64,000 nucleotides of DNA from Candidatus Aenigmatarchaeota archaeon (GTDB lineage: Archaea > Aenigmatarchaeota > Aenigmatarchaeia > GW2011-AR5): NCBI GenBank assembly GCA_016187335.1, contig JACPJW010000001.1, positions 512,001 to 576,000 of the forward strand, written 5' to 3'. The number at the start of each line of letters is the position of its first letter. The first letter of the stretch is position 1. The position numbers and the translations under genes are program-made. Shown here piece after piece: positions 13,171 to 32,712 of this stretch. The notes under the pieces are model-generated. The model worked only from the letters and a program-made list of their open reading frames with translations, did not search any database and was not told the origin of the DNA.

Positions 13171-13503
13171 TCAGACCGGGCAGCCGCATCCTCTCAGGCA
13201 GGCATCTTGCAATTCAGCGCCTGTAACGCCAGGGTATTTTTGCCCGCATATAACATCTAACCTTGTTGTTTCTCCGGGAGCTTTGTAATCCTTGACCTCT
13301 ACGTCATCTATCTTGGTTCTATCGCAGCTGTAAGCGCTCCTCAATGTCTGGCAGCCTTTTCCATAAGCCTGCTCCATCTGGATTGTTCCTGCGCCTGCGC
13401 CGAACTGGCTGCTGAACAAAGCCGCCGCCACAACAAGAACGAGCACGGCTATGGCCACGATGACTATGACATTGATAGGAAGTTCCAGCCCTTTTGAAGC
13501 CAT
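13171..13503 (-). CDS. Pilin-like protein with class III signal peptide
   Basis: MASKG|LELPINVIVIVAIAVLVLVV; Cys-rich C-terminus ending CGC. Confidence 0.8.
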   Translation of the reverse strand: MASKGLELPINVIVIVAIAVLVLVVAAALFSSQFGAGAGTIQMEQAYGKGCQTLRSAYSCDRTKIDDVEVKDYKAPGETTRLDVICGQKYPGVTGAELQDACLRGCGCPV

Positions 13504-13578
13504 GAAATCACTCTAATCTTAATTGCGTGAGGCTGTATATAAAGTTTGGTCGTCTGACGGGAAAGAAAAGTGGCATAA

Positions 13579-13905
13579 TTATTTATTTTCCGCCTTCGGC
13601 AAGGGCTGCGGGCAGAAAAGGCTGCAGCAGGTCTGGACGCACTCTTTGCCTCCCTGGGTTTTGCATTTTTCATAGTTAAGCTTGGTGCATAGCCTGACAA
13701 GCTCGGTTTCAGCGCCTTTGGTGCATTCTATGTCGTTGTTCACGTGCTTGATGCACAGGTCCCTCTGCTTGTTGAGGTCGTCGATGCTGCTTTCCGCCGG
13801 CCGGAAATTGGCATTGAAAAAGTAAAGAAGCACTGTCAGCACAAGAACTGATAGCGTAAGGACAACAATCGTTTCCAGGGTCAGCGAAACGCCTTTCCTT
13901 CGCAT
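13579..13905 (-). CDS. Pilin-like protein with class III signal peptide
   Basis: MRRKG|VSLTLETIVVLTLSVLVL; Cys-rich. Confidence 0.78.
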   Translation of the reverse strand: MRRKGVSLTLETIVVLTLSVLVLTVLLYFFNANFRPAESSIDDLNKQRDLCIKHVNNDIECTKGAETELVRLCTKLNYEKCKTQGGKECVQTCCSLFCPQPLPKAENK

Positions 13906-14028
13906 GATTATTATTTTGGTTTCCGATATATAAACAAAATCCACCATCTAAAAAATCACAAAACTCATAAATGCGGCAGAATCGGGCTTGCCTTTACTTT
14001 AACTTCTGCTTTGAGATTTATTGCTTGC

Positions 14029-15960
14029 TCATTCAGGCTCCGAGGTTTTTTCGCCGCAGACGTAATCGCCGATTTTTTCTCCTAAAGGCATTTTTCTCGC
14101 TGCGCCGCTCAGGGACGCGCCGCCCGCTCTGCACACGCTTTCATCCATTCCCGGAATATCAGCATTTCCGCACGTGTAAAGGCATCCCTGGTAGCATACA
14201 AGGTCCGCGGTGCTGCCTTTGTCCCAGTGGTAGAACCTGTACTGCAGGACGCGCACGGCGTTGCTGACGCCTTCCGTATAAGCTGGATGCACCCTCGTGC
14301 AGTCTATCGCAGGCAGATAATCTTCAGCGTTGAATTCCAGCGTGAACGGCCTTCTTAAAAATTCTTTTTTCGCTTCGTCAAAATAGTAATAGTTCCCGCC
14401 GGAGAAGGCCGCAATTGCCGAAGGCGGCTTGACATTCGGGGAGCCTGTGGTAGGTTCTGAAGAGCATGTTTTTTGCGTTGATGCGCCGCAGTCGTCCGTA
14501 TAGAGAACGCATGGGTTCACCGTGCCTTTGTCTATGGCATCGCTTGCATCACGCATCTCAAAATGAAGGTGCGGTCCCGTTCCTTCCCCGGTGCTCCCGG
14601 TCTTCGCTATTTCTTCGCCGGCAGTTACTTTTTCTTTTCTTTTGAATACCAAGTCGTTGTTTATGCTGCTCAGGTGCATGTACCACGTATAATAAGTCTC
14701 TCCGCCGAAGTCATGCCTTATCCTCATGCATACGCCGCCGCCTCCGCATGCATTGGGATTTATGTTGACGAAATCCACGGTGCCGTCAGCCGCGGCGTAT
14801 ACAGGTTCGCCCGTGTTCGCGCCTATGTCAATGCCGCCGTGAAAGTCCTGATTCCCGTTAAGTGTCCTGGTGCCAAAGCAGCTTGTAATCGCGTGGCTTT
14901 TTGTCGGCCATTTGAGAAATCCGGAGCTTGCAGAACCGCCTTCTGTTATCTTCACGTTCGCGTCGTAGTGCAGGTAAAGGCCTGCTCCTGCCGGCAGGAC
15001 GCCGCTTTCCGTCGGGACAATCAATTCCGGCCTTGTCCTGTAGTTCACGTTGATGACGGCTTTCTCAAGGTTGCCGGGATTTCTCAGCAGCAGTATATCG
15101 AGCAGCCCGTCCTTGTTGCTGTTGGTGAATTTTTTCAGATAATCGTCAGCGCTTTGTGTTGCTGCAATTCCAACGAAACGCGGAGCCCAGTCGTCCTGAT
15201 ACCTGAATTCATGCCTGTAAAGCTCGTTGCTGCCTGAGGACAGCTTCTCCGTGAAGCTGACGGAAAGTCCCAGAAGCAGTTTGGTTATCGCCTCCGCTGA
15301 AAGCCGCATCCTCTTGAATTCCGTTTCAACGAGGAACTTGTTTTCCAGCGGCCCGTAGGTGCACACAGCATTTTCGCAGCTGCCGGCGGATACGATGACG
15401 TCATGTTTCATCAGACCTTCAATGCCCTTGTCCGTTGCGGTTATTTTTGGATTCACGTTCTTTATTTCAATCGTCAGGCCGTTTGCCTCAAATTTTCGGA
15501 AATTTCCAAGCGAAATCATCTTTGCTTTCAGATAGCTGCTAAGCTGTTCATCATCCGGAATGCACGTCATCGGGTTGCCGCTGCCGTACAAACCCTTGGG
15601 CAAAAGTGATTCGTACAATTCCTGGCCTGACGACGCTGCAGTGCTTTTTTCTATTGCAGCATCCGTCTGCAGCCAGTACTTCTCCTTGAACCCTGCGGGC
15701 CTTCCGCCCTGAAGCCCGCAGCCTATCGCTTCGTCGCCTGTCTGGAAAACGCTTTGTATGGTTGAGACGGTCCAGGTGTTTCTCAGTGATTTCTGCAGAA
15801 GCGTGAACGTGTCGGATGTTTTTATTATCTGCAAAGAATCAAGGACCATTTTTTCCTGGCGCGCGCTGCCTGCTATTGCGTCCTCGTTCACTACAAACGT
15901 TAGAACAAGGACTATTCCGGTCATTATAATCAGCCCGTAAGTCATTGCAGCGCCTTTCAC
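14029..15960 (-). CDS. Large pilin-like protein containing an M23 (LytM/lysostaphin-type) metallopeptidase domain
   Basis: MKG|AAM + hydrophobic helix. M23 domain ~14500-14910: WP....ITSCFG, HGGID, VYAAADGTV, YMHL, TGSTGEGTGPHLHFE. Confidence 0.9.
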   Translation of the reverse strand: MKGAAMTYGLIIMTGIVLVLTFVVNEDAIAGSARQEKMVLDSLQIIKTSDTFTLLQKSLRNTWTVSTIQSVFQTGDEAIGCGLQGGRPAGFKEKYWLQTDAAIEKSTAASSGQELYESLLPKGLYGSGNPMTCIPDDEQLSSYLKAKMISLGNFRKFEANGLTIEIKNVNPKITATDKGIEGLMKHDVIVSAGSCENAVCTYGPLENKFLVETEFKRMRLSAEAITKLLLGLSVSFTEKLSSGSNELYRHEFRYQDDWAPRFVGIAATQSADDYLKKFTNSNKDGLLDILLLRNPGNLEKAVINVNYRTRPELIVPTESGVLPAGAGLYLHYDANVKITEGGSASSGFLKWPTKSHAITSCFGTRTLNGNQDFHGGIDIGANTGEPVYAAADGTVDFVNINPNACGGGGVCMRIRHDFGGETYYTWYMHLSSINNDLVFKRKEKVTAGEEIAKTGSTGEGTGPHLHFEMRDASDAIDKGTVNPCVLYTDDCGASTQKTCSSEPTTGSPNVKPPSAIAAFSGGNYYYFDEAKKEFLRRPFTLEFNAEDYLPAIDCTRVHPAYTEGVSNAVRVLQYRFYHWDKGSTADLVCYQGCLYTCGNADIPGMDESVCRAGGASLSGAARKMPLGEKIGDYVCGEKTSEPE

Positions 15961-17294
15961 TATTTGTCACCAACAGTCACTATGATTTTAGGAACATCTT
16001 TCGCTGTTTTCTCGCCGAAATTGCATTCCTCGCCTGTCGGTTCAATCGGCGGCGAGGTTTTTACCTTTCTCAAATCAGCTGTCACGCAGCACTGGTATGT
16101 GTTGCCTCTGGAAGCAGGGCAGTCTTTTGATATCTCGTGGTCTTTCACGCCGATAGATTCGCACTTCTGCACGTCAAGGCAGAATCCGCTCTTGCCTGTG
16201 GTTGTCGTGCATTTTATTGTCTGCGTCACGCAGCACAGATTTGCCGCGTCATTGCAAAAGCCGCGCGCAAGTTCGCCGCTGCACAAAGATTGCTTTGTTT
16301 TGGGGTCAGTGATTTTAGGGTCAACGCAGTAAAAAACCGGCGCGCCTTCCTTTGTTCTGTAAAGCAGCGGCACTTCAGCGGAGACAAGCGCTCCCAGTTC
16401 GGCAATGCCGACTTTGTCAGCAGGCGCGCAGCATGTTGTCGCGTCAAATGAAAAGGTTTTCCCGCCGCCCGGCAAGGGCACATTAACAACAGGCAGTTTT
16501 TCCGGCACGGTAATCCTTTTGCCCTTGCATTCGTTGGAGCCTTGCGGTATTTCTATCCTTCCTTCGCTGCAGAAATAATCGCACACACCAAGATCATTCG
16601 CGCCGCATCTTGCGACTGAAGGCTTGTCCGGCGGCGGGTTGTTGTAATCGCCGTTTTCTTTCACATCTTCCTTGCAGCACGCGGTGTTCAGATTGACAAG
16701 GCTTTTTTTCGTGTCAAGGAAATTGAACAAAGGGCATTTGCCTTCTGCTGAAATTTCAATTCTTCCGACGCCGCAGGGCGCTGCCGGCGTGGGATTGTTT
16801 ATCGGGTCAAGCTGCGGCGTTGAGCAGAATCCCTCGTCTTTCGCGCCGCATCGCCTTCCGTTCTTGTCAAGCTCGTATGTTACGGCTTCCCCGGAAATTA
16901 TTTTTACATTGTAATATTCTAAAGGCAGACCACTCAGATAATTCCTTATCGCGTAGTCAAGCTTGTCCCTGTCGCTTGCAGGCATTTTTCCTGTAATTGC
17001 TGACTGCAAAGCTATTTCAGCAATTGTCCGCTCGTCAGGCTTCAGCAGCATCATGATGTGCGCAATGGAATAAGGGTCCTTTGAAAGAAGGATAATTTCA
17101 TAGCTCCGCGACGACCTCGGGTCCGCGCCTGCTATCGCAAGGATAGTTTTCATGACAAGGGTTAATATGATCATAATGATTCCTATGAAAACAATAAGCA
17201 GTACGCCGACAGGCTCTATCTGCCCCTTGAAGGATTTCCGGATTTTCCCTGTTTTGTTTTTCCCTGATTTATAGTGATTTTTCATAAACATCAC
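15960..17294 (-). CDS. Class III signal peptide protein with Cys-rich repeats
   Basis: FKG|QIEPVGVLLIVFIG; repeated CG...G.C...C..GRIEI....C...CC units. Confidence 0.75.
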   Translation of the reverse strand: MMFMKNHYKSGKNKTGKIRKSFKGQIEPVGVLLIVFIGIIMIILTLVMKTILAIAGADPRSSRSYEIILLSKDPYSIAHIMMLLKPDERTIAEIALQSAITGKMPASDRDKLDYAIRNYLSGLPLEYYNVKIISGEAVTYELDKNGRRCGAKDEGFCSTPQLDPINNPTPAAPCGVGRIEISAEGKCPLFNFLDTKKSLVNLNTACCKEDVKENGDYNNPPPDKPSVARCGANDLGVCDYFCSEGRIEIPQGSNECKGKRITVPEKLPVVNVPLPGGGKTFSFDATTCCAPADKVGIAELGALVSAEVPLLYRTKEGAPVFYCVDPKITDPKTKQSLCSGELARGFCNDAANLCCVTQTIKCTTTTGKSGFCLDVQKCESIGVKDHEISKDCPASRGNTYQCCVTADLRKVKTSPPIEPTGEECNFGEKTAKDVPKIIVTVGDK

Positions 17295-17300: not shown

Positions 17301-18185
17301 TTAGCCGGCACTGCCCGATGTTCCCGGCGGGGCTTCGTTCTTTTCTATGCATAATAACACCGAGCCGACTTCATCGCTCACACCTGCTATCGCATCTTTG
17401 ACTAGGTTCCCACACTCCGCATTTGCTCCGGGCTTTATGGGATAAGCAGCCAGAATTAATTCCTTTTCACTCTTGTCAAGGCCGCCGGAAAAGGAATAAG
17501 AAACAGGCACGCCCTTGTAAAACCTGCATTCGCTGAAAGGCAGGCTCGGATGCTTTAAGCACAGCATATTATTGCCGTTGTCGTAAGTTAGGACGAAGTA
17601 GCACGTAACAGATTTTTCCGGCTGGGGGTCGCCGGATAAATATGCATCCGACCGCGGGGTTTTGCAGTTTAACTTTTCTATTTTTTTCAAAACCTGCGCC
17701 CTTTCAACGATGCACTGGACATCGCTCAGCGTGTCTTCATAAATCCTCAGGGTGAGCCTTGCAGGCTTCTCGTCAACGCTCACCGGAAATGTGGCTGTGT
17801 ATTCGTAGAGAAATCCAAGCCCGAGCCTGTTTATCGCACCTCTGAGCAGGGTTGTTTTTGGCTTGAATCCAAAACTCCATTCTTTGCCGTCGCTTTCTAT
17901 TTCCGCGCCATAGGCAAGGCTGCAGTGACGGACGAAAGGCTCTTCCAATTTCCCGTTGACATTGTCCAGCTCTGCTGACGAGAAAACAGACTTTGAAGCT
18001 GTCAGCGGCGATACGAAAAGGTTTTCAGATATTTCCACCGCAGCTCTGGGCGCCTGTTTTGAATATATGGTGGGCTCAAACGGGAACATAAGGAAAAACA
18101 CAATGGCTATTATCGCTATTTCGAATATCACGAAAATTACCCAGAAGAACGTGTTTATCTGCAATGATACTTCTTCTTCTGCCAT
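17301..18185 (-). CDS. Minor pilin-like membrane-anchored protein without a basic leader
   Basis: N-terminal hydrophobic helix, several Cys, operonic with pilin-like genes. Confidence 0.6.
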   Translation of the reverse strand: MAEEEVSLQINTFFWVIFVIFEIAIIAIVFFLMFPFEPTIYSKQAPRAAVEISENLFVSPLTASKSVFSSAELDNVNGKLEEPFVRHCSLAYGAEIESDGKEWSFGFKPKTTLLRGAINRLGLGFLYEYTATFPVSVDEKPARLTLRIYEDTLSDVQCIVERAQVLKKIEKLNCKTPRSDAYLSGDPQPEKSVTCYFVLTYDNGNNMLCLKHPSLPFSECRFYKGVPVSYSFSGGLDKSEKELILAAYPIKPGANAECGNLVKDAIAGVSDEVGSVLLCIEKNEAPPGTSGSAG

Positions 18186-18186: not shown

Positions 18187-18681
18187 CTATCCCCTTATAC
18201 AGTCGTTGACCGGCTCAAAAATGTTTATTGCGCTTTTGGTTTTGACAAAGCAAAATGTCTTCCTCATGTTTTCTGAACATTCAAAATTTATTTTTTTTAT
18301 TTTCATACCTGTCTGCAAAATGTCCGATTTGTACTGCCGGCCCTCAGATTCGTACAAAACGTACATCTGGTTTATTTCTATCCTGCACTTTCCCTGCACT
18401 GTGCGGAACATGGCGTGTGTTGTCTCCGGAGCGGATTGCAGGATGTTTATTATGCTTGCGAGCTGCTCCGCCTGCGTGAATGAAGCCCTTTCCACAGCGA
18501 TTTTTGTCGCATTTTTCCACATGCTGAACCCGAAAAAGAAAAGAAGCAGGACGATTACCAGGAAAGGCACAAAGCCGTATTCCTGGCCTTTCCTGCGGCA
18601 AAATTTTTTTTCCCCTGCGTGGTTTTTCTTTTTAATCAGAAACACAAAATCCCCTTTTAGTTTTAGCCGGGCCATTTCCAT
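18187..18681 (-). CDS. Pilin-like protein with class III signal peptide (start probably GTG 18645)
   Basis: RRKG|QEYGFVPFLVIVLLLFFF. Confidence 0.72.
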   Translation of the reverse strand: MEMARLKLKGDFVFLIKKKNHAGEKKFCRRKGQEYGFVPFLVIVLLLFFFGFSMWKNATKIAVERASFTQAEQLASIINILQSAPETTHAMFRTVQGKCRIEINQMYVLYESEGRQYKSDILQTGMKIKKINFECSENMRKTFCFVKTKSAINIFEPVNDCIRG

Positions 18682-20276
18682 TCAAAGCCTAATATTTCTT
18701 TCACTGAAGACGGGCTGAAAGGCGTTTTCGTTATGGGCTTTACATGTATTGTGTTCTTGTCAAGGAATTCCGTGTTGTCAACAACGACTGTCAGGTCAAG
18801 CTCCCATGAAATGTCATTATAGAACCAGGACCTCCACTGCTCCCTGTAGGCGTTTTTCGTCCAGCAAAAGCCTTCCGGAGGGTCTTGTATCGTTATCTGC
18901 AGGCATTTCCCTGTCGGCGCATCATCCGGTTTTACGTCGTTTTTTCCGGCAGGGCCGAGGCCTTCAACGCACTGGTAATGCGTGCCAACCTCCTGAACCT
19001 TTTTTCCGCTATCGTCAACGAAAACGTTGTATATCGGGTATTTGAGCCAGCGCTCGCATTTGTCGGGGCCCGAGCCTTTGAGCGCGCTGCAGTCTTTTTT
19101 TTCTATCAGTATCGTTTTGTCAATATTGCATGGAGATGCAATATAGAAATCCGATGTCTTCACGCCTGCAAATGCGGTGACTATAAGGCCTGAAAATTCG
19201 CGCAGGCCCCTGTAAGCTATATTGGTTACCGCCGCTCCGAATATAGCATCTATAAAAGGTATTTTTCCCAAATATTTGAAAATGAATTTCAGAAATCCCG
19301 CGCTCTTGAGGACAACTTTTCCTACAATTGTTTTTTCAAGAACCGTCCCAAGGGCAGCTATTCCGCCTGCTTTTACAATAGCCACACCAACTGCTGCAGT
19401 ACCCGCTGTTGTAGCGACAAGAAATCCGGCTGTCTGAAGTTTTCTTGCGTCAGAAGCGACATAATTCAGGTGCACGTACTGTATGTCACCGCACGCGGAG
19501 CTCAGCGGTATGCGCGTTACGGCTTCCGGTGTTTTCAGGCAGAGCGACCTCACGCCGCACGGCCTGTATTTAATGAAAGACTTCTGCTCATTGCTCATGC
19601 TCAGGTCAAGGCGGAAAACATCCGGCTGGCCTAATGGGTTATGATAAATCCATTCCCCCGCGTTACCTTTCTTGTACTCAACCTTGCCTATGGTCGGCAG
19701 GACCGGCTTTGCCTCCGATGTCGGCATGATGTTGACGTAATCGCTGAGCATTATGTTCGGAATCACGACAGATATTTTTTCCCTTTGAAGCTGTAGTTTT
19801 CCTTCGGCAATACTTTTCAGGACAGTTTCGTACCTGCTGTTCTGCCCTGCGTAAAGCTGCCTTTCAAAATTGGTTGCGTCCTTCAGGCCCTCTGAATCGG
19901 CGGTAAACGGTGCGAAGACCCTATGGCCGATAGAATTGCCCTGGTAAACCTCCCATCCCAGGCCTTCGCCTATAGGGAACGCCTCGTAGTAAAGAAGGAA
20001 ATCAGGGTCGCCAAGACCTTTTATCCTGTAAGCTGCTAGGGCATTTACAACAATTATTTTCGCAGGCCTTACCTGCGGGAATGAAAATCCCTCAAGCTCA
20101 GCCCTCTCTTTTATGCAAGCCTCGTGAATTTTTGAGCGCAGCAGCTCCGTGTTCAGCCTTGCGACCTGTTCGTTGGAAGGTATGGTTGACAGGAAGTAAA
20201 GAAAAGCGCCTGCCATTATGGCTATCAGAATCATCTGCATTACAAGATATACCGGTTCTGAAAACCCCTTTGTCAT
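18663..20276 (-). CDS. Large class III signal peptide protein with an internal Gly/Ala-rich hydrophobic segment
   Basis: MTKG|FSEPVYLVMQMILIAIM; internal TAGFLVATTAGTAAVGVAIVKAGGIAALG...FSGLIVTAFAGV. Confidence 0.72.
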   Translation of the reverse strand: MTKGFSEPVYLVMQMILIAIMAGAFLYFLSTIPSNEQVARLNTELLRSKIHEACIKERAELEGFSFPQVRPAKIIVVNALAAYRIKGLGDPDFLLYYEAFPIGEGLGWEVYQGNSIGHRVFAPFTADSEGLKDATNFERQLYAGQNSRYETVLKSIAEGKLQLQREKISVVIPNIMLSDYVNIMPTSEAKPVLPTIGKVEYKKGNAGEWIYHNPLGQPDVFRLDLSMSNEQKSFIKYRPCGVRSLCLKTPEAVTRIPLSSACGDIQYVHLNYVASDARKLQTAGFLVATTAGTAAVGVAIVKAGGIAALGTVLEKTIVGKVVLKSAGFLKFIFKYLGKIPFIDAIFGAAVTNIAYRGLREFSGLIVTAFAGVKTSDFYIASPCNIDKTILIEKKDCSALKGSGPDKCERWLKYPIYNVFVDDSGKKVQEVGTHYQCVEGLGPAGKNDVKPDDAPTGKCLQITIQDPPEGFCWTKNAYREQWRSWFYNDISWELDLTVVVDNTEFLDKNTIHVKPITKTPFSPSSVKEILGFEWKWPG

Positions 20277-20294: not shown

Positions 20295-20435
20295 TTACCT
20301 GTTCGGGAAAACAAGATTCAGCATGCTGTCTATGCCTGTCTTGAAAGTCGGGACAGCCTTCCCCAGAATCAAAATCGTGGCAAGCAATATTACCAGAAAT
20401 ATTATTATGCTGACTACGACGTGCTCAAGGCGCAT
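20295..20435 (-). CDS. 46-aa single-helix membrane micro-protein (not in ORF track)
   Basis: MRLEHVVVSIIIFLVILLATILILGKAVPTFKTGIDSMLNLVFPNR. Confidence 0.7.
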   Translation of the reverse strand: MRLEHVVVSIIIFLVILLATILILGKAVPTFKTGIDSMLNLVFPNR

Positions 20436-20521
20436 GATTACATATCCGTCCAGCGATTAAAATAGTTTCTGGAATTGCTGTAAAAATAATCTTTATTACT
20501 TGCAGAAAAGAAAGATTCATC

Positions 20522-20671
20522 ATGGGCATTATTGAACGCCCGATGGACTATTTTCTTGGGATAGCACTTATGGCTCTTGTCCTCGGCGTGGGGTTCTTTT
20601 TCCTGCTTTCCAACAAGGATACGGTAATCAGGATAATATCAATAATTTCCGGCTCCCTGGGGTTCGGGTAG
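20522..20671 (+). CDS. 49-aa single-helix membrane micro-protein (not in ORF track)
   Basis: MGIIERPMDYFLGIALMALVLGVGFFFLLSNKDTVIRIISIISGSLGFG. Confidence 0.65.
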   Translation: MGIIERPMDYFLGIALMALVLGVGFFFLLSNKDTVIRIISIISGSLGFG

Positions 20672-20686: not shown

Positions 20687-21298
20687 TCAGCCGCTGCATT
20701 TCATGACCCTGCCTGTCATGAAAAACGACCTCATTATGATCCAGCCGCAGGAATCCGTGAACTCTTTAAGCGTCACTCCTTTCTTCGCAAGCGCATCGCA
20801 GCCTTTGTCGGGGTTTATGAACCCGAAAACGAATGTTTCCTCGTCTTTCAGGCCTATGGAATTGAGGTCCTCTTCCTTTGCCGGGGGCGCAGTGAACCTT
20901 CTTGATGTTATAGTCTTTGTATTCGTATCCGGGGATATCTCAATAGTATATTCTCCTGTTTCCTGATTGCCGCCTATGTAGCCGGCAACAACAACTCCCT
21001 TCATCAGGAAAAACATGTTCGCCTTCACCTTTTCTTTGTATTCAAACCCTACGTTGTCAAGAATGATTTTCTTCTCGTCGGAGCAGACCTTAACCTTTTT
21101 TGCAAGGTCTTCAGGCCTGTCGGTGATTTGTATTTCCTTGTCAACGCCTGCAAATTTTATGTTTTTTGCCGTGTTGCTTGAAGTCAGCAGGACGTGGTAA
21201 ATTATCAGCAGGACAATTACCATTACTATTACTTTCAAAGCGTAATCAAAGGCGACCATGATATTAACTGTGCTTTCTGTATAATAAGTTTTCCTCAA
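20687..21298 (-). CDS. Membrane-anchored pilin-cluster protein
   Basis: Hydrophobic helix ALKVIVMVIVLLIIYHVLL near the N-terminus; stop overlaps neighbour. Confidence 0.65.
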   Translation of the reverse strand: MRKTYYTESTVNIMVAFDYALKVIVMVIVLLIIYHVLLTSSNTAKNIKFAGVDKEIQITDRPEDLAKKVKVCSDEKKIILDNVGFEYKEKVKANMFFLMKGVVVAGYIGGNQETGEYTIEISPDTNTKTITSRRFTAPPAKEEDLNSIGLKDEETFVFGFINPDKGCDALAKKGVTLKEFTDSCGWIIMRSFFMTGRVMKCSG

Positions 21299-22303: not shown

Positions 22304-22474
22304 TCACGCCGCCACAGGGCCGCCGCTTGTGTACCTTATAGCTTCGTTTATTGCAGTCACTATAAATTTTCCGAACCCCGGCAAAAGGTTAGTGTTCAGA
22401 AGCGCGATAGCAACAAGGCCGAATGCAAGGGCTACCAACAGAGCAGTCATAAGGTCAAAGCCGGAATCGCTCAT
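22304..22474 (-). CDS. 56-aa membrane micro-protein (not in ORF track)
   Basis: GGTGA SD then MSDSGFDLMTALLVALAFGLVAIALLNTNLLPGFGKFIVTAINEAIRYTSGGPVAA. Confidence 0.75.
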   Translation of the reverse strand: MSDSGFDLMTALLVALAFGLVAIALLNTNLLPGFGKFIVTAINEAIRYTSGGPVAA

Positions 22475-22478: not shown

Positions 22479-22619
22479 TCACCCGAAGACAGGCTTGAGT
22501 GCGGGTATTATGTCAAAGACGCCTTCCTTTTGGCTGGCAAAAATCAAAATTACAATCACAGCGGCGACAATAGTAAGTATCTGCCATATATACTGCATTA
22601 TAAGCCGCTTTTGTAGCAT
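22479..22619 (-). CDS. 46-aa membrane micro-protein (not in ORF track)
   Basis: MLQKRLIMQYIWQILTIVAAVIVILIFASQKEGVFDIIPALKPVFG; its stop overlaps the SD of the next gene. Confidence 0.7.
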   Translation of the reverse strand: MLQKRLIMQYIWQILTIVAAVIVILIFASQKEGVFDIIPALKPVFG

Positions 22620-24684: not shown

Positions 24685-25275
24685 ATGAAAATCATCCTCG
24701 CGACGGCATCGCCTTACCGCAAGCGCGCGTTCGCCGCGCTTGGAATTCCTTTCACGGCCGAAGGAAGCGGTGTCGAAGAAGACTTTGAAGGCAGGCCCGG
24801 GAACCCCGAAGAGCTTGTTCTTGTCCTGGCAAAGAAAAAGGCAGAAGCTGTTGCCAAAAATCACAGGGAAGGGATAGTCATAGGTTTTGATTCCGTCGGC
24901 TTGTTCGAAGGAGCGGTTCTCGAAAAGCCGGAATCTGAAGAGGAGCTTTTTGAGCGTCTGAAAGACCTTTCAGGAAAAAGCCACGAGTTCATAACAGGCG
25001 TCCACATGATAAACGTTTCTTCGGGCAGATTTTTGTCAAAGGCCGTGAAGACAAAGGCTTTCTTCAGGGTTCTGAAAGACGAAGAAATAAAAAAATACAT
25101 CAGCGAAGACCCTGACTACGGCACCTTTGCCGTTGGCTACGACCCGTGGAACCACATAAGCTCCAGCTTCGCTGAGCGCATTGAAGGCAGCTATCACAAT
25201 CTCATAAGCGGGGTGCCGTTGGAAGCGATAGTGGAAATGCTTTATGAAATGGGATTCAGGTTAACCAAGAATTAA
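24685..25275 (+). CDS. maf: Maf-family nucleoside triphosphate pyrophosphatase
   Basis: IILATASPYRK, KKAEAV, IVIGFDSV, LEKP, IEGSYHNLISGVP. Confidence 0.88.
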   Translation: MKIILATASPYRKRAFAALGIPFTAEGSGVEEDFEGRPGNPEELVLVLAKKKAEAVAKNHREGIVIGFDSVGLFEGAVLEKPESEEELFERLKDLSGKSHEFITGVHMINVSSGRFLSKAVKTKAFFRVLKDEEIKKYISEDPDYGTFAVGYDPWNHISSSFAERIEGSYHNLISGVPLEAIVEMLYEMGFRLTKN

Positions 25276-25652
25276 AGATGGGGCAAATAAGGGAGGTCCA
25301 TAATTGCCCTGTTAGATTCACATAAAGAGTCGAATCTGTCTAGGAACCCGCGATTTTCAGCTACCACTCGGGCAGTCTGCCTGTCGCACCAATTAGATAA
25401 TGTTTTATAAAAAACTCTTTCATCGTAGCCATGTTCTATAACAGACTCTTCCAAACGCCTTTTTAATTTGAACTGCTTTCGAATCACGTATAATGAATAA
25501 GCACATCCAGCAAGAATAACAGTAGCGCTAATTAAATTTCTGTATTGAAGAGAAGCAGCAAGGGCGCCTGCACTGAGGAGGAAAAAAGTCTCTCCTACAG
25601 GTGCTGCCCTGTAAAAATCTATTACGCCTTTGATTCTCACTCGTTCAAGCAT
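25272..25652 (-). CDS. Orphan 2-TM membrane protein (AT-rich)
   Basis: 126-aa ORF with two hydrophobic helices. Confidence 0.6.
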   Translation of the reverse strand: MLERVRIKGVIDFYRAAPVGETFFLLSAGALAASLQYRNLISATVILAGCAYSLYVIRKQFKLKRRLEESVIEHGYDERVFYKTLSNWCDRQTARVVAENRGFLDRFDSLCESNRAIMDLPYLPHL

Positions 25653-25681: not shown

Positions 25682-27901
25682 TCAAAACCTGTTCTTGAGC
25701 CAGCCCTGCCATTTCTCATAAATCAGAGCGCTGTCCAGTTCGCCTGTTTCCTCTTTTACTTCGCTGCTGATTATGTGGAACATTGAGTTGCTCTCGATGA
25801 CCGTAGGCGCTTCCAGGACCTCAGGGCCTTTTGCTTTTGAATAATCCGTGAGCGTCTTCAGTATGTTCGCGCGCAGCTGGATGTTGCTCCAGATGGAGTC
25901 CCAGTTTCCTTTCCACTCGCGGACGCGCGACGCTATGTCATTTAGAACAACGCTTTCGCCTGTCAGCAGCGTTGATGTGGGCTTCAGCACATCGTCTTTG
26001 GCAGAATACTCCAGCAGGTTGACGAATCCTCCTTCATCCGCAGGGTCGCTTTTCCAGTGCTTTCTCACTTCCGTAAGCTCAACAACCCTGCGGAACGCGT
26101 GCAGGCCGTCGGGCGACCTCAGCATGTTGGCAATGACGATGAGGTCAGTCGCCTTGAAGCTTGTAGGCGGCACGCCCAGGTCGTTAACAACCCTGTCGAA
26201 GACGCCGTAGGCGGATTCGCCATGGATAGTGCCGGCAACTACGTTTGCCAAAGCGCCGATTCTCATTGCTTCGTATAATGCCAGCGCTTCGCGCGAGCGG
26301 ACCTCGCCGACGATGAGCGCGGAATCGCCCAAGCGCAGCGCGGTACGCAGCGCTTCTTCTGCCGGCAATTCCGTTTCCACGCGCGTGATGACAGAACGGG
26401 ATTTCAGCCGCTCGATATTGTATTCAAGTGCGCGCATCTGCTCAACAGGGAGCTCCAAGGTGTCTTCAACCGTGACAATCCTGATCTTCGGCATTATCTG
26501 GACCATGCATGCGCCCAGAAAACTGCTTTTTCCGCTGCTGCGCGTGCCTGCAATCAGCATCGTCCTCGCGCCGTCAATCAGGAACCACAAAAGTCCCGCG
26601 GAGAAAGGGTCAATCATCTTGTTTTGAATGAATAATGGAAATGTCCACGGCTTGTCCCTGTGGCGTCGCAGCGCGAAGCCCAGGCCGTCAGGCGACAGCG
26701 AACGCGTTATAGCCGCGACCCTTGCGCGTCCGCCCGGTACGCTGAGTTCCGTGTCAAGAACGGGATTCGCCTCGTCCAAAGGCCGTCCGGAAAGCAGGCG
26801 GAAGCGCGTTGCCCATGACTCGGCGTCCTCCATGCTGGGAACGATGTTCGTCTCGCACTCCTCGTAAACGCCGTGAAAAACATATATGGGCGAATAGCCC
26901 ACGGGCGAATTCACGGAAATGTCCTGGATGTTCTCGTCCTCAAGGATAAGCTCTATGGTCCCCAATCCCGCCGTGTACCTTGTCAGTATGTCGGCAAGTT
27001 CCTGCAGCCTTTTTTCGGAAATTTCTATTTTATTTACCTTTGACAGATCGCGGAGCATGTCCAGCCCTATCCTGAATAAATTCTCTCTCAGCCTGTGGGG
27101 ATCCTGCAGTTCAACCTCTCTCGGCTCGTGCCTGCCTATGTATCGCCGTGCATTGTCCAGCAATGTATACTCTTCCTCGGCCAGTCGGAATTCCGGCGGA
27201 ATGAGATGGTAAAGTTTGCGCGTTTTTCCATGCATCTGGTATATCTCGACAATGCTGTCGCCGACAGCATAGCGCTCAACCAGTTCGGCGTCAGCAGGCG
27301 GCAGCGTCATGTAGTGCGTATACATGAAGTTCGGCCGCACGGTGGGGTGGAAAAACTTTCTGTACAATGAGCGGTTCTTGTGTTCCGCTAAGTGCGGCTT
27401 CGCTTTCTGGATCAGCAGGCAGCTGTCCAGCAGTTTCTCTATGGGAAGCAGTGCGCTGTTAAGGTAGTGCTGCAGGCAGCTGCGCTTCAGGTCGTCGTAT
27501 TCCCGCTGCGCCCTCACGCTTGTGTGCCTGATCTCCCTCAGCAGTTGCTTGTAGGCTTCTATGGGGTCGTAGCGCATCTCGGCAACAAATTTCTGCAGGA
27601 ACTCGTAGCGCGGCGCCGCGTCGTCCTCGCACCCCCGTATGACGACGTTCTTGATGCTTATTACTTCCTTCATGGTGCGTTCCAGCGCCAGGGCAATTTC
27701 CAGCAGCATCTTGGATTCGCTGAAGTCGTATTCATGCTCCCGCGTGTCCGCAAGAACAATCCTGACTGATTTTTTTATCTCCATGAGCTTGTCTATTGTC
27801 GCGGCCATCCATACCGGATAGTCCTCTATGCTGGCGCCGTAAACGCTCTTCAGGACGTTCATCCTTATGCGCTGGTTCTCCTCGTCATATTCATACGCCA
27901 T
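25682..27901 (-). CDS. Type II/IV secretion system ATPase (TadA/CpaF/ArlI-like) with long N-terminal extension
   Basis: Walker A AGTRSSGKS, TVEDTLEL, ALRLGDSALIVGEVR, GTIHG. Confidence 0.93.
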   Translation of the reverse strand: MAYEYDEENQRIRMNVLKSVYGASIEDYPVWMAATIDKLMEIKKSVRIVLADTREHEYDFSESKMLLEIALALERTMKEVISIKNVVIRGCEDDAAPRYEFLQKFVAEMRYDPIEAYKQLLREIRHTSVRAQREYDDLKRSCLQHYLNSALLPIEKLLDSCLLIQKAKPHLAEHKNRSLYRKFFHPTVRPNFMYTHYMTLPPADAELVERYAVGDSIVEIYQMHGKTRKLYHLIPPEFRLAEEEYTLLDNARRYIGRHEPREVELQDPHRLRENLFRIGLDMLRDLSKVNKIEISEKRLQELADILTRYTAGLGTIELILEDENIQDISVNSPVGYSPIYVFHGVYEECETNIVPSMEDAESWATRFRLLSGRPLDEANPVLDTELSVPGGRARVAAITRSLSPDGLGFALRRHRDKPWTFPLFIQNKMIDPFSAGLLWFLIDGARTMLIAGTRSSGKSSFLGACMVQIMPKIRIVTVEDTLELPVEQMRALEYNIERLKSRSVITRVETELPAEEALRTALRLGDSALIVGEVRSREALALYEAMRIGALANVVAGTIHGESAYGVFDRVVNDLGVPPTSFKATDLIVIANMLRSPDGLHAFRRVVELTEVRKHWKSDPADEGGFVNLLEYSAKDDVLKPTSTLLTGESVVLNDIASRVREWKGNWDSIWSNIQLRANILKTLTDYSKAKGPEVLEAPTVIESNSMFHIISSEVKEETGELDSALIYEKWQGWLKNRF

Positions 27902-27995: not shown

Positions 27996-28361
27996 ATGCC
28001 CAAAGAAGACATCACGCGCGTCTATTCCATCCTGCAGGAACTGGTCAGGCGCAGCACCGAGATGAACACAAGGATGCGCATGCTTGAGCAGCGCCTTGAC
28101 GGCGTCGAGTCGCGTCTGGCGTCCGTGGAGTCATCAACCATGGAAAGGACAAAGAAAACAAATACGAAGTACGTGGAGATAGATGTAACTCTAAGAAATT
28201 TAAACGACGAGATACTAAGAATAAAAAACAACCTCGAGAAAATCAACCGGCAGGTAGGCAAGTTTGCGCGCAAAAGGGATGTCCGCGAGATTGAAAAGAT
28301 GATGGAGCTCCTCGGTCCTTCCAGGTATAAGCTGCCCGTTGAGGAAGAGGTTGAAAGCTGA
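27996..28361 (+). CDS. Coiled-coil hypothetical protein
   Basis: Heptad-rich 121-aa ORF divergent from the ATPase. Confidence 0.7.
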   Translation: MPKEDITRVYSILQELVRRSTEMNTRMRMLEQRLDGVESRLASVESSTMERTKKTNTKYVEIDVTLRNLNDEILRIKNNLEKINRQVGKFARKRDVREIEKMMELLGPSRYKLPVEEEVES

Positions 28362-28556
28362 ATTCCAATGCGGAAACCAGCGCTATATATAAATATAGTG
28401 AATGACATAATATTTCATACAAAATTGATGTCATTCACATATAGCACTGACAAACTATTATGTATAATAACTTTTGTCAGATGCTATAGCAGGAAAATCA
28501 AATAAGTTAAGGCAGAATATTGTCCCTGACATTCCGCTTTGGTACGAGTTGATAAA

Positions 28557-29219
28557 ATGCTGTTTTTCGGAAAAAAGAAGCAGGAAGAAAAGCTTATCCC
28601 GCCCGCAGAAGTGGAGCGGATGGCAAAAATGGGCCTGAGCGACAAGGACATAATCAAGTACCTGAAGGCGCAGGGCTATTCCTATCCGGAAATTGAGAAA
28701 GCCATGATGGCTGCAGTCAAGAAAGGGGCGACGGAAGAGCCGCAGCAATCGCAATTGCAGGCGCCTGTCCAGAAAGAAGCGGCAAAGGCGCCCGACCTGC
28801 CCGACCTGCCCGAGATAAGCAGCGAGCCCACTTTTGAAGAGGAGCTTGGCATGGGCGCCGAGCCCGAGATGGACATCAACCCGGAAGTCATTGTCGAGGA
28901 GCTCGTTGAAGGCGTTGTGAATGAGAAATGGCAGAAATTCGAGGAAAGGATGAACCGCACAGAAGACGAGCTGAACAAGCTTCACGCGGATTTGCAGCAG
29001 TCCCTGAGCAGGCTGGAATCCATAAAGCACGAGCCCCACGGCAAGGAAAGCGATGCCAAAATTCAGGAGTTGTCCGAGCAATTAGAAGAATTACAGGCGC
29101 GCGTCGGCGGCCTTGAAAAGGCCTTCAAGCAGTTCCTGCCCGCGCTGACGAAGAACATAGAATCGCTGTCGAACATGATTCACGAGATGAAGGAAAAGCG
29201 CGGCGTTGTGGAAGCTTGA
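28557..29219 (+). CDS. Protein with N-terminal helical domain, acidic linker and C-terminal coiled coil
   Basis: PPAEVERM...GLSDKDII.YL..QGY, then long heptad repeats. Confidence 0.72.
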   Translation: MLFFGKKKQEEKLIPPAEVERMAKMGLSDKDIIKYLKAQGYSYPEIEKAMMAAVKKGATEEPQQSQLQAPVQKEAAKAPDLPDLPEISSEPTFEEELGMGAEPEMDINPEVIVEELVEGVVNEKWQKFEERMNRTEDELNKLHADLQQSLSRLESIKHEPHGKESDAKIQELSEQLEELQARVGGLEKAFKQFLPALTKNIESLSNMIHEMKEKRGVVEA

Positions 29220-29478: not shown

Positions 29479-30372
29479 CTATTTTTTCACGCACAGTTCA
29501 TTGCTGTTTTCTTTATTCTCTGGTTTGCAATCAAGGTTGCACGCGTCTTCTTTGCAGGCTCGCTCGTTCATGAAGACAAACCATTCAGGGTTGTAGATAT
29601 TGTAGTAGTCTCCGCAACTTTTTACGTTGGAGCAAGGGACGCACTTTCCAAGCTCAGGAACGACATAGTATGCAATGCCTATTCCTGCAAGAACGACAAT
29701 TATTGCAGGACCTAACCTTTCTTCTCCCAATTGCTTCGATATGTAGCCTGATGATGCAAGCACTGCAAACTGAGGAAATCCGTTAAAGCCCAGAAAGTAG
29801 CATTTGTCCGGGGATTCCCTGTTTGACTGCTCACAGTTTTTTCTTGTTGTCAGGAAAGACGCGCACGTAACGGGTTCTTTAGGAGTGAAAGGTTTTGACT
29901 GGCTCTGTGCAGCAGCCCCTGTTATCATGTCGCTGACGTCGCTGTAAGCAACAAGGTCGTTTTCAACCGCATACTGGGCTGTCAGCATGTTGGACTTTGC
30001 AACCAGCGGCTCGCCCAGTTCTTCTGAAGCGACCGCCCCCAAATCTTCTCCCGCTTCGCATTTATCTGCAATGTAGTTTTCCCAAAGGCCTGTTTTTTCG
30101 TTTACACCGCCGCAGACCCTTACCGGGTTTTGTGCTGTGTAGCAGATGCAGTAAGGAACAGAAATCCCTCTGTACACAGCGTCTGTGCAGCTCTCTGAAG
30201 TAAGCATGTAGACTTCATTGTCGTACGCTCCTCTGTCGCATATGCCGTTTTCGTAGCCTATCAGGTTACATTCGCCCGTGCACGAGGCATCGGCTTCCTC
30301 CAGAAGAGCAGCAAATGAAACAGAAGAAAGGATGATTGTAGAAGCCAGAAAAAGAGCGAGGAATTTGCGCAT
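29479..30372 (-). CDS. Secreted/surface Cys-rich protein
   Basis: Signal peptide MRKFLALFLASTIILSSVSFA, many Cys, internal TM-like segment. Confidence 0.7.
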   Translation of the reverse strand: MRKFLALFLASTIILSSVSFAALLEEADASCTGECNLIGYENGICDRGAYDNEVYMLTSESCTDAVYRGISVPYCICYTAQNPVRVCGGVNEKTGLWENYIADKCEAGEDLGAVASEELGEPLVAKSNMLTAQYAVENDLVAYSDVSDMITGAAAQSQSKPFTPKEPVTCASFLTTRKNCEQSNRESPDKCYFLGFNGFPQFAVLASSGYISKQLGEERLGPAIIVVLAGIGIAYYVVPELGKCVPCSNVKSCGDYYNIYNPEWFVFMNERACKEDACNLDCKPENKENSNELCVKK

Positions 30373-30407
30373 GAGTATAATTGCCGCGTCAAATATAAAT
30401 TATAATT

Positions 30408-30878
30408 TCATCCCTTCATCAAAAAGGTTATAGAAGCGCCGATGATGAGGATTACAAGGACAATGCTCCATGTGACGTCAGTGACGCGGATGCCGAAAGC
30501 CGTCCCGGCCGCGACGAAAAACACTATGATGCCCACAGCTACCAAGGCGTACTTCACGCCCCCGCCGCTCATCATCTTGGATACATCACCGCCTGTCATC
30601 GCCAGAAAAAGTATGATTACAAGAAGCCCTGCCAGGACAACCGTGCCGAAGCCGAAAAGCGTTGTGAAGAAGATTGCTATTGCCGGGCCGCCGAACCCGA
30701 CAATGAAGAATGCCAGCACAAGCGATATGGAGCCGATTATTTTCTTGTCCTCACCGAGGACTTTCGTTTTCAGCAGCGCCGCGAAGGTTACGGCAAGAAT
30801 GAACAGGAACGGCAGGAAAAAGCCGAAGAAGCCCATGGCTTCCAGGTTCGTGACAAGGATTTCAAACGGGTTCGCCAT
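30408..30878 (-). CDS. Polytopic membrane protein, paralog 1 of a tandem family
   Basis: FFLPFLFILAVTFAALLKTKVLG..K...SISLVLAFF motif. Confidence 0.78.
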   Translation of the reverse strand: MANPFEILVTNLEAMGFFGFFLPFLFILAVTFAALLKTKVLGEDKKIIGSISLVLAFFIVGFGGPAIAIFFTTLFGFGTVVLAGLLVIILFLAMTGGDVSKMMSGGGVKYALVAVGIIVFFVAAGTAFGIRVTDVTWSIVLVILIIGASITFLMKG

Positions 30879-30956
30879 GATTACCAGTTATTCTTTATCT
30901 GTCGTCCATGCTTAAATTGTTTTGCGGTAACGCACCAAAAATTTCCAAGAAAGAAA

Positions 30957-31469
30957 TTATCCGCCGGCTGCTTTTGGCGCCGGTTTTTCGCCCTCGTCCT
31001 TCCCGCTCATCACGAAGTGCGCCGCTACGAGGACGATGACAACGGCGAAAATCAGGGTTGCCGTGTCGCCGCTGAGCGTGATGCCGAGGAACCCGCCGCC
31101 GGCTGAAGCAAGGAACAGGACAACGGCTATGATTACAACAACAGCTAATGCCCATTCATTCTTGGCCCAGTAGTCTGTTATGTTTCTGCCCAGCATCGCG
31201 CCAAAGAGCAGGACAACTAAAATTCCCGCCAGGAAAACGGATGTCCCGCCGAACAGGTTGATGAAGAAAGCCGCGAGCTGCGGCCCGCCGACAGCAGTAA
31301 CGAAGAATGCAATGACAAAAGCCAGGGCCGCAGATACCTTGTCGTTCTTCTTTTCCCCGAATATGTTTAATTTGATTAACAAGCCGTAAACTATGGCGAA
31401 CGTGAATATCCATGGAAGTATGAATCCGTAGAACTCGGGTCCTAACAACTGGGGAATCTCAACAGCCAC
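30957..31469 (-). CDS. Polytopic membrane protein, paralog 2
   Basis: FILPWIFTFAIVYGLLIKLNIFG...KVSAALAFVIAFF. Confidence 0.78.
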   Translation of the reverse strand: MAVEIPQLLGPEFYGFILPWIFTFAIVYGLLIKLNIFGEKKNDKVSAALAFVIAFFVTAVGGPQLAAFFINLFGGTSVFLAGILVVLLFGAMLGRNITDYWAKNEWALAVVVIIAVVLFLASAGGGFLGITLSGDTATLIFAVVIVLVAAHFVMSGKDEGEKPAPKAAGG

Positions 31470-31602
31470 TTGTAATCACTTGTTATTTTATTGTTGCACT
31501 GGTTTTTATACGTTAGCATGCTTTGTTTTTCAGTCAGGGCAATTACAGCAGAATCACTGCGGACAGGGAGCGAAGCCCGTTAATCCGTCTTGATAGTATC
31601 TG

Positions 31603-32064
31603 CTATTTTGCGGGCTGCTGGTAAGCTACAATAAATACGAGGAGGGCAACCGCAATCCCCAGTATCCACAAAACGTTTGAGGAGCTCAGACCTTCCACTG
31701 GTATGTTTATCCTGTCCCAGAAAGCGCCTAGAAGTATGAGCCCTATGGCAAGCAAGGCAACAGGCGGGAACGCGTCAAAGTGCTCGCCTTCTTTCTTCGG
31801 CTTGAAGACTTCCTTCACAAAAACGAGGAAAAACAATATAACAAGCGGTATCACGAGTATCGGCAGTATGTTAAAAAGCCCTGTCCGGAAAGGCTCAAAG
31901 GACGCGGCGAAAATCCCGAAGACTAAAGCTATTGCCGCGTTGACGTTCTTAGGGAAGCCGAACATCTTTGCGTAAGAAAGAAGCCCGAAGACAATGGCGA
32001 ACACGAAAAGGAACGCGCCCAGGAACGGCAACAGGGCGGGGTCAACAGCAAATTCTACGGCCAT
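31603..32064 (-). CDS. Polytopic membrane protein, paralog 3
   Basis: FLFVFAIVFGLLSYAKMFGFPKNVNAAIALVFGIF. Confidence 0.75.
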   Translation of the reverse strand: MAVEFAVDPALLPFLGAFLFVFAIVFGLLSYAKMFGFPKNVNAAIALVFGIFAASFEPFRTGLFNILPILVIPLVILFFLVFVKEVFKPKKEGEHFDAFPPVALLAIGLILLGAFWDRINIPVEGLSSSNVLWILGIAVALLVFIVAYQQPAK

Positions 32065-32076
32065 TTTATCACGGTT

Positions 32077-32712
32077 TTAAAATCCCGGCAGGCGGCTTCC
32101 TCTTTGCCATTTTCTCATGACATTCAGCTGGGTTTCTATCTCATGCATCTCAGCCTTCAGCGTTGCGCGCTGTTGCCTCAGCTCTGATAATCTCGTCTCC
32201 ATCTTGCCTTTTTCTGCATGTCCGATTTCATCGTCAACAGCTCTCATCATCGCATTTATCCTGTCCTTTTCAATCAAAAGGTCCCGCCTGGGCATGTTTT
32301 CATAATGTGCAAGGCCGGCAGCGCCGGGAGCGCCGCCGCCCGGAGCAGCTGCAGTCCCGCCGCTTCTCCTGCCTGTAAAGTGCTCTATGAAGAAATACAG
32401 CAGGCCCATTATGAATATCAAAAAGAGGAAATAAGGTCCTGCTATCAAGGCGAAGTTCCTGTAGTAGCCGCCGGCTATGATGAACAAATACATGCCGATG
32501 CCAAGAAGAAGCCTTAGCCGGGCAAATATGCCTTCCGGCGGAAATAACCTGCCTACAGTTATGTAGATAACGACTATGATGAAAATGCTCGGAACGATAA
32601 GGAACATTATCAAGTCGTTTATTATGTTTCCCGTGAACGGCGAGCCAGGGTATTCTGTAAATTGCAATATATCCCGGAACAGCATGCCGCCGATGTCGTC
32701 TTCAAATGCCAT
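32077..32712 (-). CDS. Membrane protein with C-terminal coiled coil, divergent paralog 4
   Basis: Three TM helices, Gly/Ala linker, coiled coil. Confidence 0.65.
   Translation of the reverse strand: MAFEDDIGGMLFRDILQFTEYPGSPFTGNIINDLIMFLIVPSIFIIVVIYITVGRLFPPEGIFARLRLLLGIGMYLFIIAGGYYRNFALIAGPYFLFLIFIMGLLYFFIEHFTGRRSGGTAAAPGGGAPGAAGLAHYENMPRRDLLIEKDRINAMMRAVDDEIGHAEKGKMETRLSELRQQRATLKAEMHEIETQLNVMRKWQRGSRLPGF

Follow-up and report, generated by a model that had tools for sequence, protein, structure and literature searches.

The stretch of DNA analysed here (64 000 nucleotides of a Candidatus Aenigmatarchaeota archaeon genome, G000:C2:512001–576000, hereafter the window) encodes, at positions 13171–32712, a type IV filament (T4F) machine that is not an archaellum. 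The genome, 1.01 Mb on two contigs, is an estimated 90.8% complete, and near homologues of its proteins bear the names Candidatus Aenigmatarchaeota or Aenigmarchaeota. All genes listed for the locus were confirmed at their coordinates. A first-pass annotation, made from the sequence alone, had proposed a type IV pilus-like envelope machine of a DPANN archaeon, and this is borne out by a secretion ATPase, a membrane platform and an operon whose products carry pilin-type (class III) leaders. We consider it rather probable that the machine is of the kind found in cluster-2 DPANN archaea, with a core for attachment and with p643, a leader-bearing protein with a predicted murein hydrolase domain, as an accessory wall cutter.

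The ATPase (739 aa; 25682–27901, minus strand; FlaI/TadA/GspE family) matched PF00437 with 60.6 bits against a cut-off of 24.9 (E 1.4e-16), and its Walker A motif (GTRSSGKS), EDT.EL box, GEVR and TIHG motifs are all readable, with the nucleotide-binding boxes intact. The fused FlaJ/TadC-type platform (650 aa with about nine transmembrane (TM) helices; 22657–24609, minus strand) matched PF00482 with 27.1 bits against a cut-off of 25.2 (E 4.3e-6), so that both proteins are what the first-pass annotation took them for. A full-length orthologue of the ATPase was found in 149 of the 151 Aenigmatarchaeota genomes that made up our phylum sample (45–75% identity), and the platform gene adjoins it in 19 of the 20 relatives, spanning the phylum, in which ~25 kb around the ATPase orthologue were compared for synteny. 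The best matches of the ATPase in PDB were afGspE of Archaeoglobus (2OAP, 1e-31), then FlaI (4II7) and CpaF. About 290 aa at its N-terminus are unannotated (Pfam at E ≤ 5 on the first 300 aa returned nothing meaningful), and Pfam did not confirm a lead to PilB3_N from ESM Atlas (0.81). In the proteins of the locus Pfam recognised T2SSE, T2SSF, M23 and Maf domains and nothing else, NCBIfam gave no match for the platform or the pilin-like proteins, and ESM Atlas returned unnamed archaeal clusters only. Many orthologues of the ATPase contain LAGLIDADG inteins near residue 480 (total length about 1245–1800 aa; among others in G015, G125, G022 and G081); the copy in this genome is intein-free.

That the locus encodes a reduced archaellum, serving motility, is hardly credible, and we rejected this reading on the lack of an archaellin together with a FlaI score far below cut-off. 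FlaG, FlaI and FlaJ are listed for most Aenigmarchaeota metagenome-assembled genomes (Li et al., 2021; PMC8407114), and the best NCBIfam match of the 739-aa ATPase is indeed the FlaI model. On this ArlI-type model (NF058587), however, it scores 141 bits where the cut-off is 550; the two other pilus-type ATPases of the genome reach 401 and 364, and it is the most divergent of the three. No archaellin (PF01917) was detected anywhere in the 90.8%-complete genome by a search that did detect it in control archaea; ArlH, ArlF/G and ArlCDE/X were not recognised by Pfam among the locus proteins, a genome-wide search for them not having been made. The first-pass statement that neither archaellin nor prepilin peptidase is recognisable in the window can be widened to the whole genome for the former, while for the latter an A24 peptidase does exist outside the window (gene G000:C2:106742–107545; PF01478 match at G000:C2:106781–107086, 31.5 bits against a cut-off of 26.5). 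A DNA-uptake pilus of the competence type, which would feed a nucleotide-poor cell, is suggested by analogy with candidate phyla radiation bacteria and Com pili only and seems very improbable, the genome encoding no ComEC-type channel and Pfam recognising no DNA-binding module in the operon.

On the plus strand, between the gene for a Cys-rich protein and that for the ATPase, lie the two coiled-coil genes already noticed in the first pass: cc121 (27996–28361), divergent from the ATPase gene and found at this place in 18 of the 20 relatives, and cc226 (28539–29219, with a probable ATG start at 28557; aligned across three phyla), found in 16. Neither product has a signal peptide or a TM helix. 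cc226 consists of a small UBA-like N-terminal helical domain, a low-complexity linker and a coiled coil with a conserved LEKAFK..LP motif, and its profile matched generic coiled coils only in PDB; the match to sigma-1 (6GAO, E 5e-4) stands alongside those to GCN4, to spike heptad repeats and to designed helical proteins. The coiled-coil genes have as neighbours, in about 12 of the 20 relatives, the genes for small proteins with five TM helices (5-TM), represented here by three copies on the minus strand (153, 170 and 156 aa; 31603–32064, 30957–31469 and 30408–30878) that belong to no known family (Pfam, ESM Atlas). Four paralogous membrane proteins had been annotated at first; these three are paralogues (hhalign 96.7–99.9%), but the fourth, of 211 aa (32077–32712, minus strand; three TM helices and a C-terminal coiled coil), is unrelated to them (hhalign ≤5%) and conserved in the family and order only.

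Outside Aenigmatarchaeota, 1.8 billion representative proteins were searched, and full-length relatives of the ATPase, N-terminal region included, turned up at 34–41% identity in Methanolobus, Methanosarcina and Thermoplasmatota. A hidden Markov model of the platform matched with E 1e-185 to 1e-245 in other cluster-2 DPANN archaea and, in Methanosarcinales and Thermoplasmatota, with about 1e-100 to 1e-125. When one genome per species was scanned, 80 loci were returned, and with profiles of the Aenigmatarchaeota proteins the platform gene was found adjacent to the ATPase gene in nearly all of them. Strong matches to the coiled-coil pair and the 5-TM proteins were confined to Woesearchaeota, Nanohaloarchaeota, Aenigmatarchaeota and a small number of unplaced or doubtfully labelled archaeal contigs; the cc121 profile reached E 1e-20 to 1e-34 in the Nanohaloarchaeota and Woesearchaeota loci, and matches to the cc121, cc226, 5-TM and platform profiles lie in the loci L103, L125–L127, L130 and L136. 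One complete Nanohaloarchaea genome carries two 5-TM genes, two coiled-coil genes, the ATPase, the platform and about ten RKG-led genes. In a maximum-likelihood tree the ATPases of Aenigmatarchaeota, Nanohaloarchaeota and Woesearchaeota form a single clade (32 rows, SH-aLRT 100), apart from an Iainarchaeota/Micrarchaeota group and a Hadarchaeota/Thermoplasmatota/Methanosarcinales group, which save for two weak profile matches have no coiled-coil genes. Whereas the first-pass annotation had allowed that the ATPase and platform might fall within a characterised adhesion-pilus clade, with accessory genes out of synteny, the ATPase belongs to an uncharacterised clade of three lineages (in a tree that holds no Haloferax PilB3 or Halobacterium Pil1 ATPase) and the accessory genes are syntenic, the coiled-coil and 5-TM genes across relatives and the pilin block in its order within the family. 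Two ATPases branch inside the Thermoplasmata and ANME-2 groups in spite of their labels (L101, labelled Aenigmatarchaeota, and L069, labelled Nanoarchaeia), which points to mis-binning or gene transfer.

Given that Nanohaloarchaeota and Woesearchaeota share this module and that the ATPases fall into one clade, we take the core to be the cluster-2 DPANN locus of Hamm et al. (2024; PMC11291902). As described in the main text of that study, two conserved loci of coiled-coil, CpaF and TadC genes occur across cluster-2 DPANN archaea, with Aenigmarchaeota named among them, several of the products were detected in Ca. Nanohaloarchaeum antarcticus, a role in host interaction was proposed, and the coiled-coil proteins were likened to the reovirus sigma-1 attachment protein. 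Our locus likewise has two coiled-coil genes beside a long ATPase and a platform, and cc226 reproduces the weak sigma-1 match. It differs from what the same main text describes in also having the 5-TM paralogues, an ordered block of genes for about ten class III proteins and murein hydrolase fusions. It differs in interpretation too: because cc121 and cc226 lack signal peptides and TM helices and match generic coiled coils in PDB, we read them not as akin to viral attachment proteins but as probable cytoplasmic parts of the base.

The architecture of the locus resembles that of the euryarchaeal 'system 2' pili, exemplified by the PilB3–PilC3 adhesion pili of Haloferax volcanii, with further loci in Archaeoglobus and Aciduliprofundum (PMC4858521, PMC13705601). 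To judge from the published descriptions of system 2 and of Makarova clade 2, the likeness extends to the extended N-terminus of the ATPase, the presence of just one platform gene, additional membrane proteins, large adhesin-like proteins and a set of pilins of which some have class III motifs and others do not; the nearest solved ATPase is also afGspE. No pilin here, however, matches a Pfam pilin family, Pilin_N being confined to the other locus of the genome, and the coiled-coil pair and 5-TM paralogues were seen only in DPANN loci. An ordinary system 2 adhesion pilus for surface attachment and biofilm formation, in which the M23 protein would be encoded nearby but do something unrelated, for instance serve in antibacterial competition, would account for this architecture, for the kinship with afGspE of Archaeoglobus and for ATPase–platform pairs 34–43% identical in free-living Methanosarcinales, Thermoplasmatota and Hadarchaeota, and archaea are known that secrete murein hydrolases lethal to bacteria (PMC12352652). 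We nevertheless regard it as quite unlikely, given that in most of the 20 loci examined the M23 gene encodes a pilin-type leader and is itself part of a pilin operon, and that the coiled-coil-bearing branch was seen only in host-dependent DPANN lineages. Compared with the Epd pilus of Methanococcus maripaludis ('system 1'), the locus shares a multi-gene operon with many predicted minor pilins and very small headless pilin candidates but has one 650-aa platform gene where system 1 has two. Such pairs, of 301–325 aa, do occur in two further, 'system 1'-like T4F loci of the genome, one at G000:C2:~70000–107600 that has about 15 pilins of the Pilin_N type, a 1019-aa ATPase with an intein and the only A24 peptidase of the genome, the other at C2:~419600–426200 with a 615-aa ATPase and 4–5 pilins. 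Pilus islands with unrecognisable pilins have been described in DPANN archaea before (Makarova et al., 2019), and a recent census found that they rarely have ordered T4F loci and that the type of these is ambiguous (Sivabalasarma and Albers, 2026; PMC13705601); the former statement does not hold for the locus described here.

Downstream of the platform gene, the subunit operon runs on the minus strand in the order two micro-open reading frames (micro-ORFs), p334, p203, two micro-ORFs, p537, p164, p294, p444, p643, p122 and p110. Several of these genes overlap or abut (overlaps at 15960, 18663–18681 and 21295–21298), which argues for a single transcript. In seven of the nine larger products a (K/R)(G/A) site immediately precedes a hydrophobic helix, in agreement with the first-pass count of nine pilin-like genes, seven of them with class III leaders. 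These are p110 (13171–13503), p122 (13579–13947; leader RKG↓V, eight Cys), p643 (14029–15960; leader (M/V)KG↓AAMTYG), p444 (15960–17294; FKG↓Q, 24 Cys), p164 (18187–18681; RKG↓Q), p537 (18663–20276; MTKG↓F) and p334 (21295–22299; MRA↓G, anchored, ten Cys). A loose scan for such leaders gave 114 candidates in the 1.01 Mb genome, many of them spurious, with seven in this 9-kb block. The convincing candidates form three clusters, each beside genes for a T2SSE ATPase and a T2SSF platform, so that the concentration in the block is not due to chance. Most of the 20 relatives have 8–12 genes for MKG-led, Cys-rich proteins downstream of the platform, and three members of the family (G132, G133 and G040) keep the order p537–p164–p294–p444–p643–p122–p110, ending at a FEN1 gene. 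Relative to the closest of these, G132, identity is 75% for the ATPase, 59% for the platform, 55% and 46% for the coiled-coil proteins, and 23–41% or undetectable for the pilin-like proteins, a gradient indicating that the base is kept while the outer parts change quickly.

The best-conserved subunit is p110, a candidate major subunit with 30 homologues, all the named ones from Aenigmatarchaeota; in its family the start KG↓LELPIN and a hydrophobic stretch are invariant, and six Cys are conserved. An AlphaFold2 model of p110 (predicted local distance difference test, pLDDT, 82.9) has a helix at residues 10–58 and a small head, which would give the protein the general shape of a pilin. p122 is related to p110 across leader and helix (hhalign 98.5%). 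p537, aligned with four orthologues, has the conserved motifs GDP.F.LYYE.FP, IKY.PCG..SLCLKT, FCWT and W.WPG and a variable Gly/Ala-rich hydrophobic insert; Pfam at E ≤ 5 returned nothing meaningful for either p537 or p110. The four micro-proteins of the first-pass annotation correspond to single-TM minus-strand micro-ORFs, two after the platform gene (46 and 56 aa; 22479–22619 and 22304–22474), which are possible Flp- or Epd-like minimal pilins, and two further candidates among the mechanically called ORFs (46 and 34 aa; 20295–20435 and 20425–20529). A weak match to DUF7697 was obtained for the first pair, and in relatives MKG-led ORFs of 50–75 aa follow the platform gene at the equivalent place; BLAST detected no homologue in relatives for p334, p203 or the micro-ORFs. 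The main subunit of the fibre could be p110/p122 or the headless micro-proteins. Elsewhere in the genome, far from machine genes, an orphan gene (G000:C2:169845–170222) encodes a p110-like, pilin-like protein of 125 aa whose start reads MRKG↓MELPV and which contains six Cys. To the left of the window, about 15 kb from the locus, lies a gene for a giant candidate class III surface protein (2196 aa; G000:C2:503804–510394, L055:3805–10392), which has MRKG before a hydrophobic start and no Pfam domain.

Among the leader-bearing proteins is p643, in which the leader is followed by ~330 aa without a known domain, an M23 domain (about residues 340–480; PF01551, 87.9 bits against a cut-off of 28.7, E 5e-25) and a Cys-rich tail. 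Its zinc-ligand motifs HxxxD and HxH (HGGID and HLHFE) are intact and align to those of the M23 structure 9GY1, and the domain is nearest to bacterial DD-endopeptidases (39–48% identity); from its sequence, p643 is predicted to cleave peptidoglycan cross-bridges. The leader requires a GTG start, which is supported by orthologues with KG↓(V/A)(G/A)TT leaders; KG-led orthologues are found in G132, G040 and G125. Across the phylum, at least 12 genomes, belonging to four families, have M23 at a distance of 3–17 kb from the ATPase orthologue, and most of 20 M23 genes inspected encode (K/R)(G/A)↓hydrophobic leaders and stand among other such genes, even on contigs without the ATPase. One relative encodes a leader-bearing protein of 1203 aa that joins PKD, YkuD and Amidase_3 domains; in a second relative the fusion is to a C-type lectin. 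Of the 72 large anchored proteins that 21 loci provided, about 60 belong to no family and about ten have any Pfam domain: M23 (five), PKD (two), and Amidase_3, YkuD, lectin, C25 and glycosyltransferase (one each). The 'many enzyme-bearing minor pilins' of the first-pass annotation are therefore overstated, the window having one and about ten of 72 having any domain, but M23 proteins with pilin-type leaders do occur across the phylum, together with the Amidase_3 and lectin fusions. Two other M23 proteins are encoded in the genome, one of 370 aa with a Tat-like leader (G000:C2:33340–34452) and one of 224 aa with no leader (C2:120371–121045).

The assembled genome encodes no Mur ligase and no penicillin-binding transpeptidase, which rules out an own murein wall as the target of the M23 domain. 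Other murein-less archaea encode bacterial-type murein hydrolases, M23 enzymes included, that are taken to target bacteria: the secreted Woldo and Danwoldo hydrolases of Halogranum kill bacteria (PMC12352652), and 'vampiristic' Woesearchaeota have lytic transglycosylases (PMC9723730). Unlike p643, those enzymes have Sec, Tat or no signals and wall-binding domains, and no link to a pilus. In its layout p643 is closer to the bacterial modular pilins (Raynaud et al., 2021; PMC8179133), such as PilB (vWA) and PilC (lectin) of Streptococcus sanguinis and those with S74 or M26 peptidase modules, in which a class III leader and an anchoring helix precede a functional module that in bacteria is probably exposed at the tip. 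That survey was built on a bacterial pilin signature and makes no mention of archaea or of M23; in contrast to the bacterial examples, the module of p643 is a predicted murein endopeptidase in a murein-less organism. Our literature search returned no paper that joins class III leaders, murein hydrolases and archaea, and M23 proteins with pilin-type leaders inside pilin blocks across a phylum are new, the core locus itself having been published. These enzyme-carrying proteins hint at contact with bacteria.

Most products of the operon are large and globular, unlike typical pilins, and the domains that can be recognised among them and their counterparts are those of enzymes or binders (M23, Amidase_3, YkuD, lectin, PKD, C25). 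This would suit a device for surface display or secretion, a bindosome or a system like type II secretion that would build no more than a short pseudopilus or a scaffold close to the membrane and hold KG-led enzymes and binders at the cell surface to scavenge, for example, muropeptides and debris rather than to touch a living partner, and class III leaders on binding proteins are indeed known in archaea (Sivabalasarma and Albers, 2026; PMC13705601). The ATPase, however, scores 54.8 bits on the BasE model NF053672 against a cut-off of 1000, Pfam recognised no ABC transporter or substrate-binding protein among its proteins, and p110 constitutes a well-conserved family of small pilin-like proteins with a long N-terminal helix. 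We therefore think a display device unlikely. An attachment machine with an accessory wall cutter remains our preferred explanation, and attachment to partner cells or surfaces is most likely the service of its core.

Several observations weigh against this explanation or parts of it. Two of the nine larger operon proteins, p203 (20687–21298) and p294 (17301–18185; eight Cys), have an N-terminal TM helix but no class III site. The p110 model found no match in PDB with Foldseek at E ≤ 0.001, and a wide VIA-align search gave a best Z of 4.6, long-helix noise only. An AlphaFold2 run on p643 with eight sequences (pLDDT 39) left the region between leader and M23 domain, where a modular pilin would have its pilin module, unmodelled. 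None of the RNA runs that were checked for the sequence contains it. M23 occurs in 53 of the 151 Aenigmatarchaeota genomes and is missing from about two thirds of them, and Amidase_3 occurs in four of the 151, on which ground we rejected it as a common partner. Some M23 enzymes also cut substrates other than murein, and to our knowledge all cultivated DPANN archaea have archaeal hosts, which lack murein. Given the counts for M23 and Amidase_3, wall cutting is an accessory rather than a core function, an optional load carried by about a third of the phylum. The stronger proposition, that the pilus machine of Aenigmatarchaeota presents M23 and, in some genomes, amidase plus L,D-transpeptidase-fold hydrolases on pilin anchors and thereby couples attachment to the local opening of a bacterial wall, is tentative, and we hold it to be less likely than not. 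The first-pass picture of a host-contact apparatus, with a tip complex for binding and breaching the wall of a partner, may apply to the locus.

Under the preferred explanation, a hexameric-type ATPase would sit against the single platform protein from the cytoplasmic side and polymerise small subunits. The coiled-coil and 5-TM proteins would be lineage-specific parts of the base, probably docking on the N-terminal region of the ATPase and in the membrane. The one A24 prepilin peptidase of the genome would cut the leaders after (K/R)(G/A), and the fibre would be made either of small disulfide-bonded proteins of the p110/p122 type or of the micro-proteins. The larger Cys-rich proteins, which evolve fast, would act as minor subunits or be anchored in the membrane as surface proteins, presented by the filament or standing beside it; one of them, p643, would hold its murein-cutting enzyme on or next to the filament, where it might act on a bacterial wall upon contact.

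The remaining genes of the locus appear to be no part of this machine. In the order of transcription, the minus strand carries the 211-aa membrane protein, the three 5-TM proteins, a Cys-rich protein of 297 aa, the ATPase, a TM protein of 126 aa and the platform, followed by the subunit operon; a 72-aa ORF accompanies the coiled-coil genes on the plus strand, and a Maf gene, also on the plus strand, lies between the genes for the 126-aa protein and the platform. Nothing corresponds at this place in the 20 relatives to Maf or to the proteins of 297, 72 and 126 aa, and we rejected all four as parts of the system on this ground. The membership of the 297-aa protein (29479–30372, minus strand; 18 Cys, a Sec-type signal, a C-terminal TM helix, no Pfam family), the surface protein of the first-pass annotation, is doubtful for want of a counterpart. 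Maf and the 126-aa protein (24685–25652) split the ATPase from the platform in this genome only, the two genes abutting or overlapping in 19 of the 20 relatives. Directly upstream of the locus, at 32774–34426, lie genes for proteins of 311 and 211 aa that have no Pfam family and no counterpart in the 20 relatives. At the other end, the pilin block of the family is bounded distally by the gene for the flap endonuclease FEN1 (12008–13024, opposite strand; 63–70% identical in G132, G133 and G040). An Alba-like gene stands near the distal end of the block in the Aenigmatarchaeota G129 and G148 and the Nanohaloarchaea locus L127 (20032–20346). DNA of the genome was detected in groundwater metagenomes from two studies.

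Much of archaeal diversity belongs to DPANN archaea, and outside a few cultures little is known of how they attach to partners or who these partners are. The value of the present locus in this respect is tempered by the earlier publication of its core. Aenigmatarchaeota nevertheless keep an ordered, near-universal T4F locus, in contrast to the newest census, which calls DPANN loci scattered and ambiguous, and the published set of coiled-coil, ATPase and platform genes extends to 5-TM paralogues and, in Aenigmatarchaeota and Nanohaloarchaeota, to a full subunit operon. If hydrolases are carried on pilin anchors and open bacterial walls upon attachment, some DPANN archaea would have bacterial rather than archaeal partners or prey. 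Should p643 cut bacterial sacculi and sit on the filament, the question of whether some DPANN archaea live on bacteria would become directly testable.

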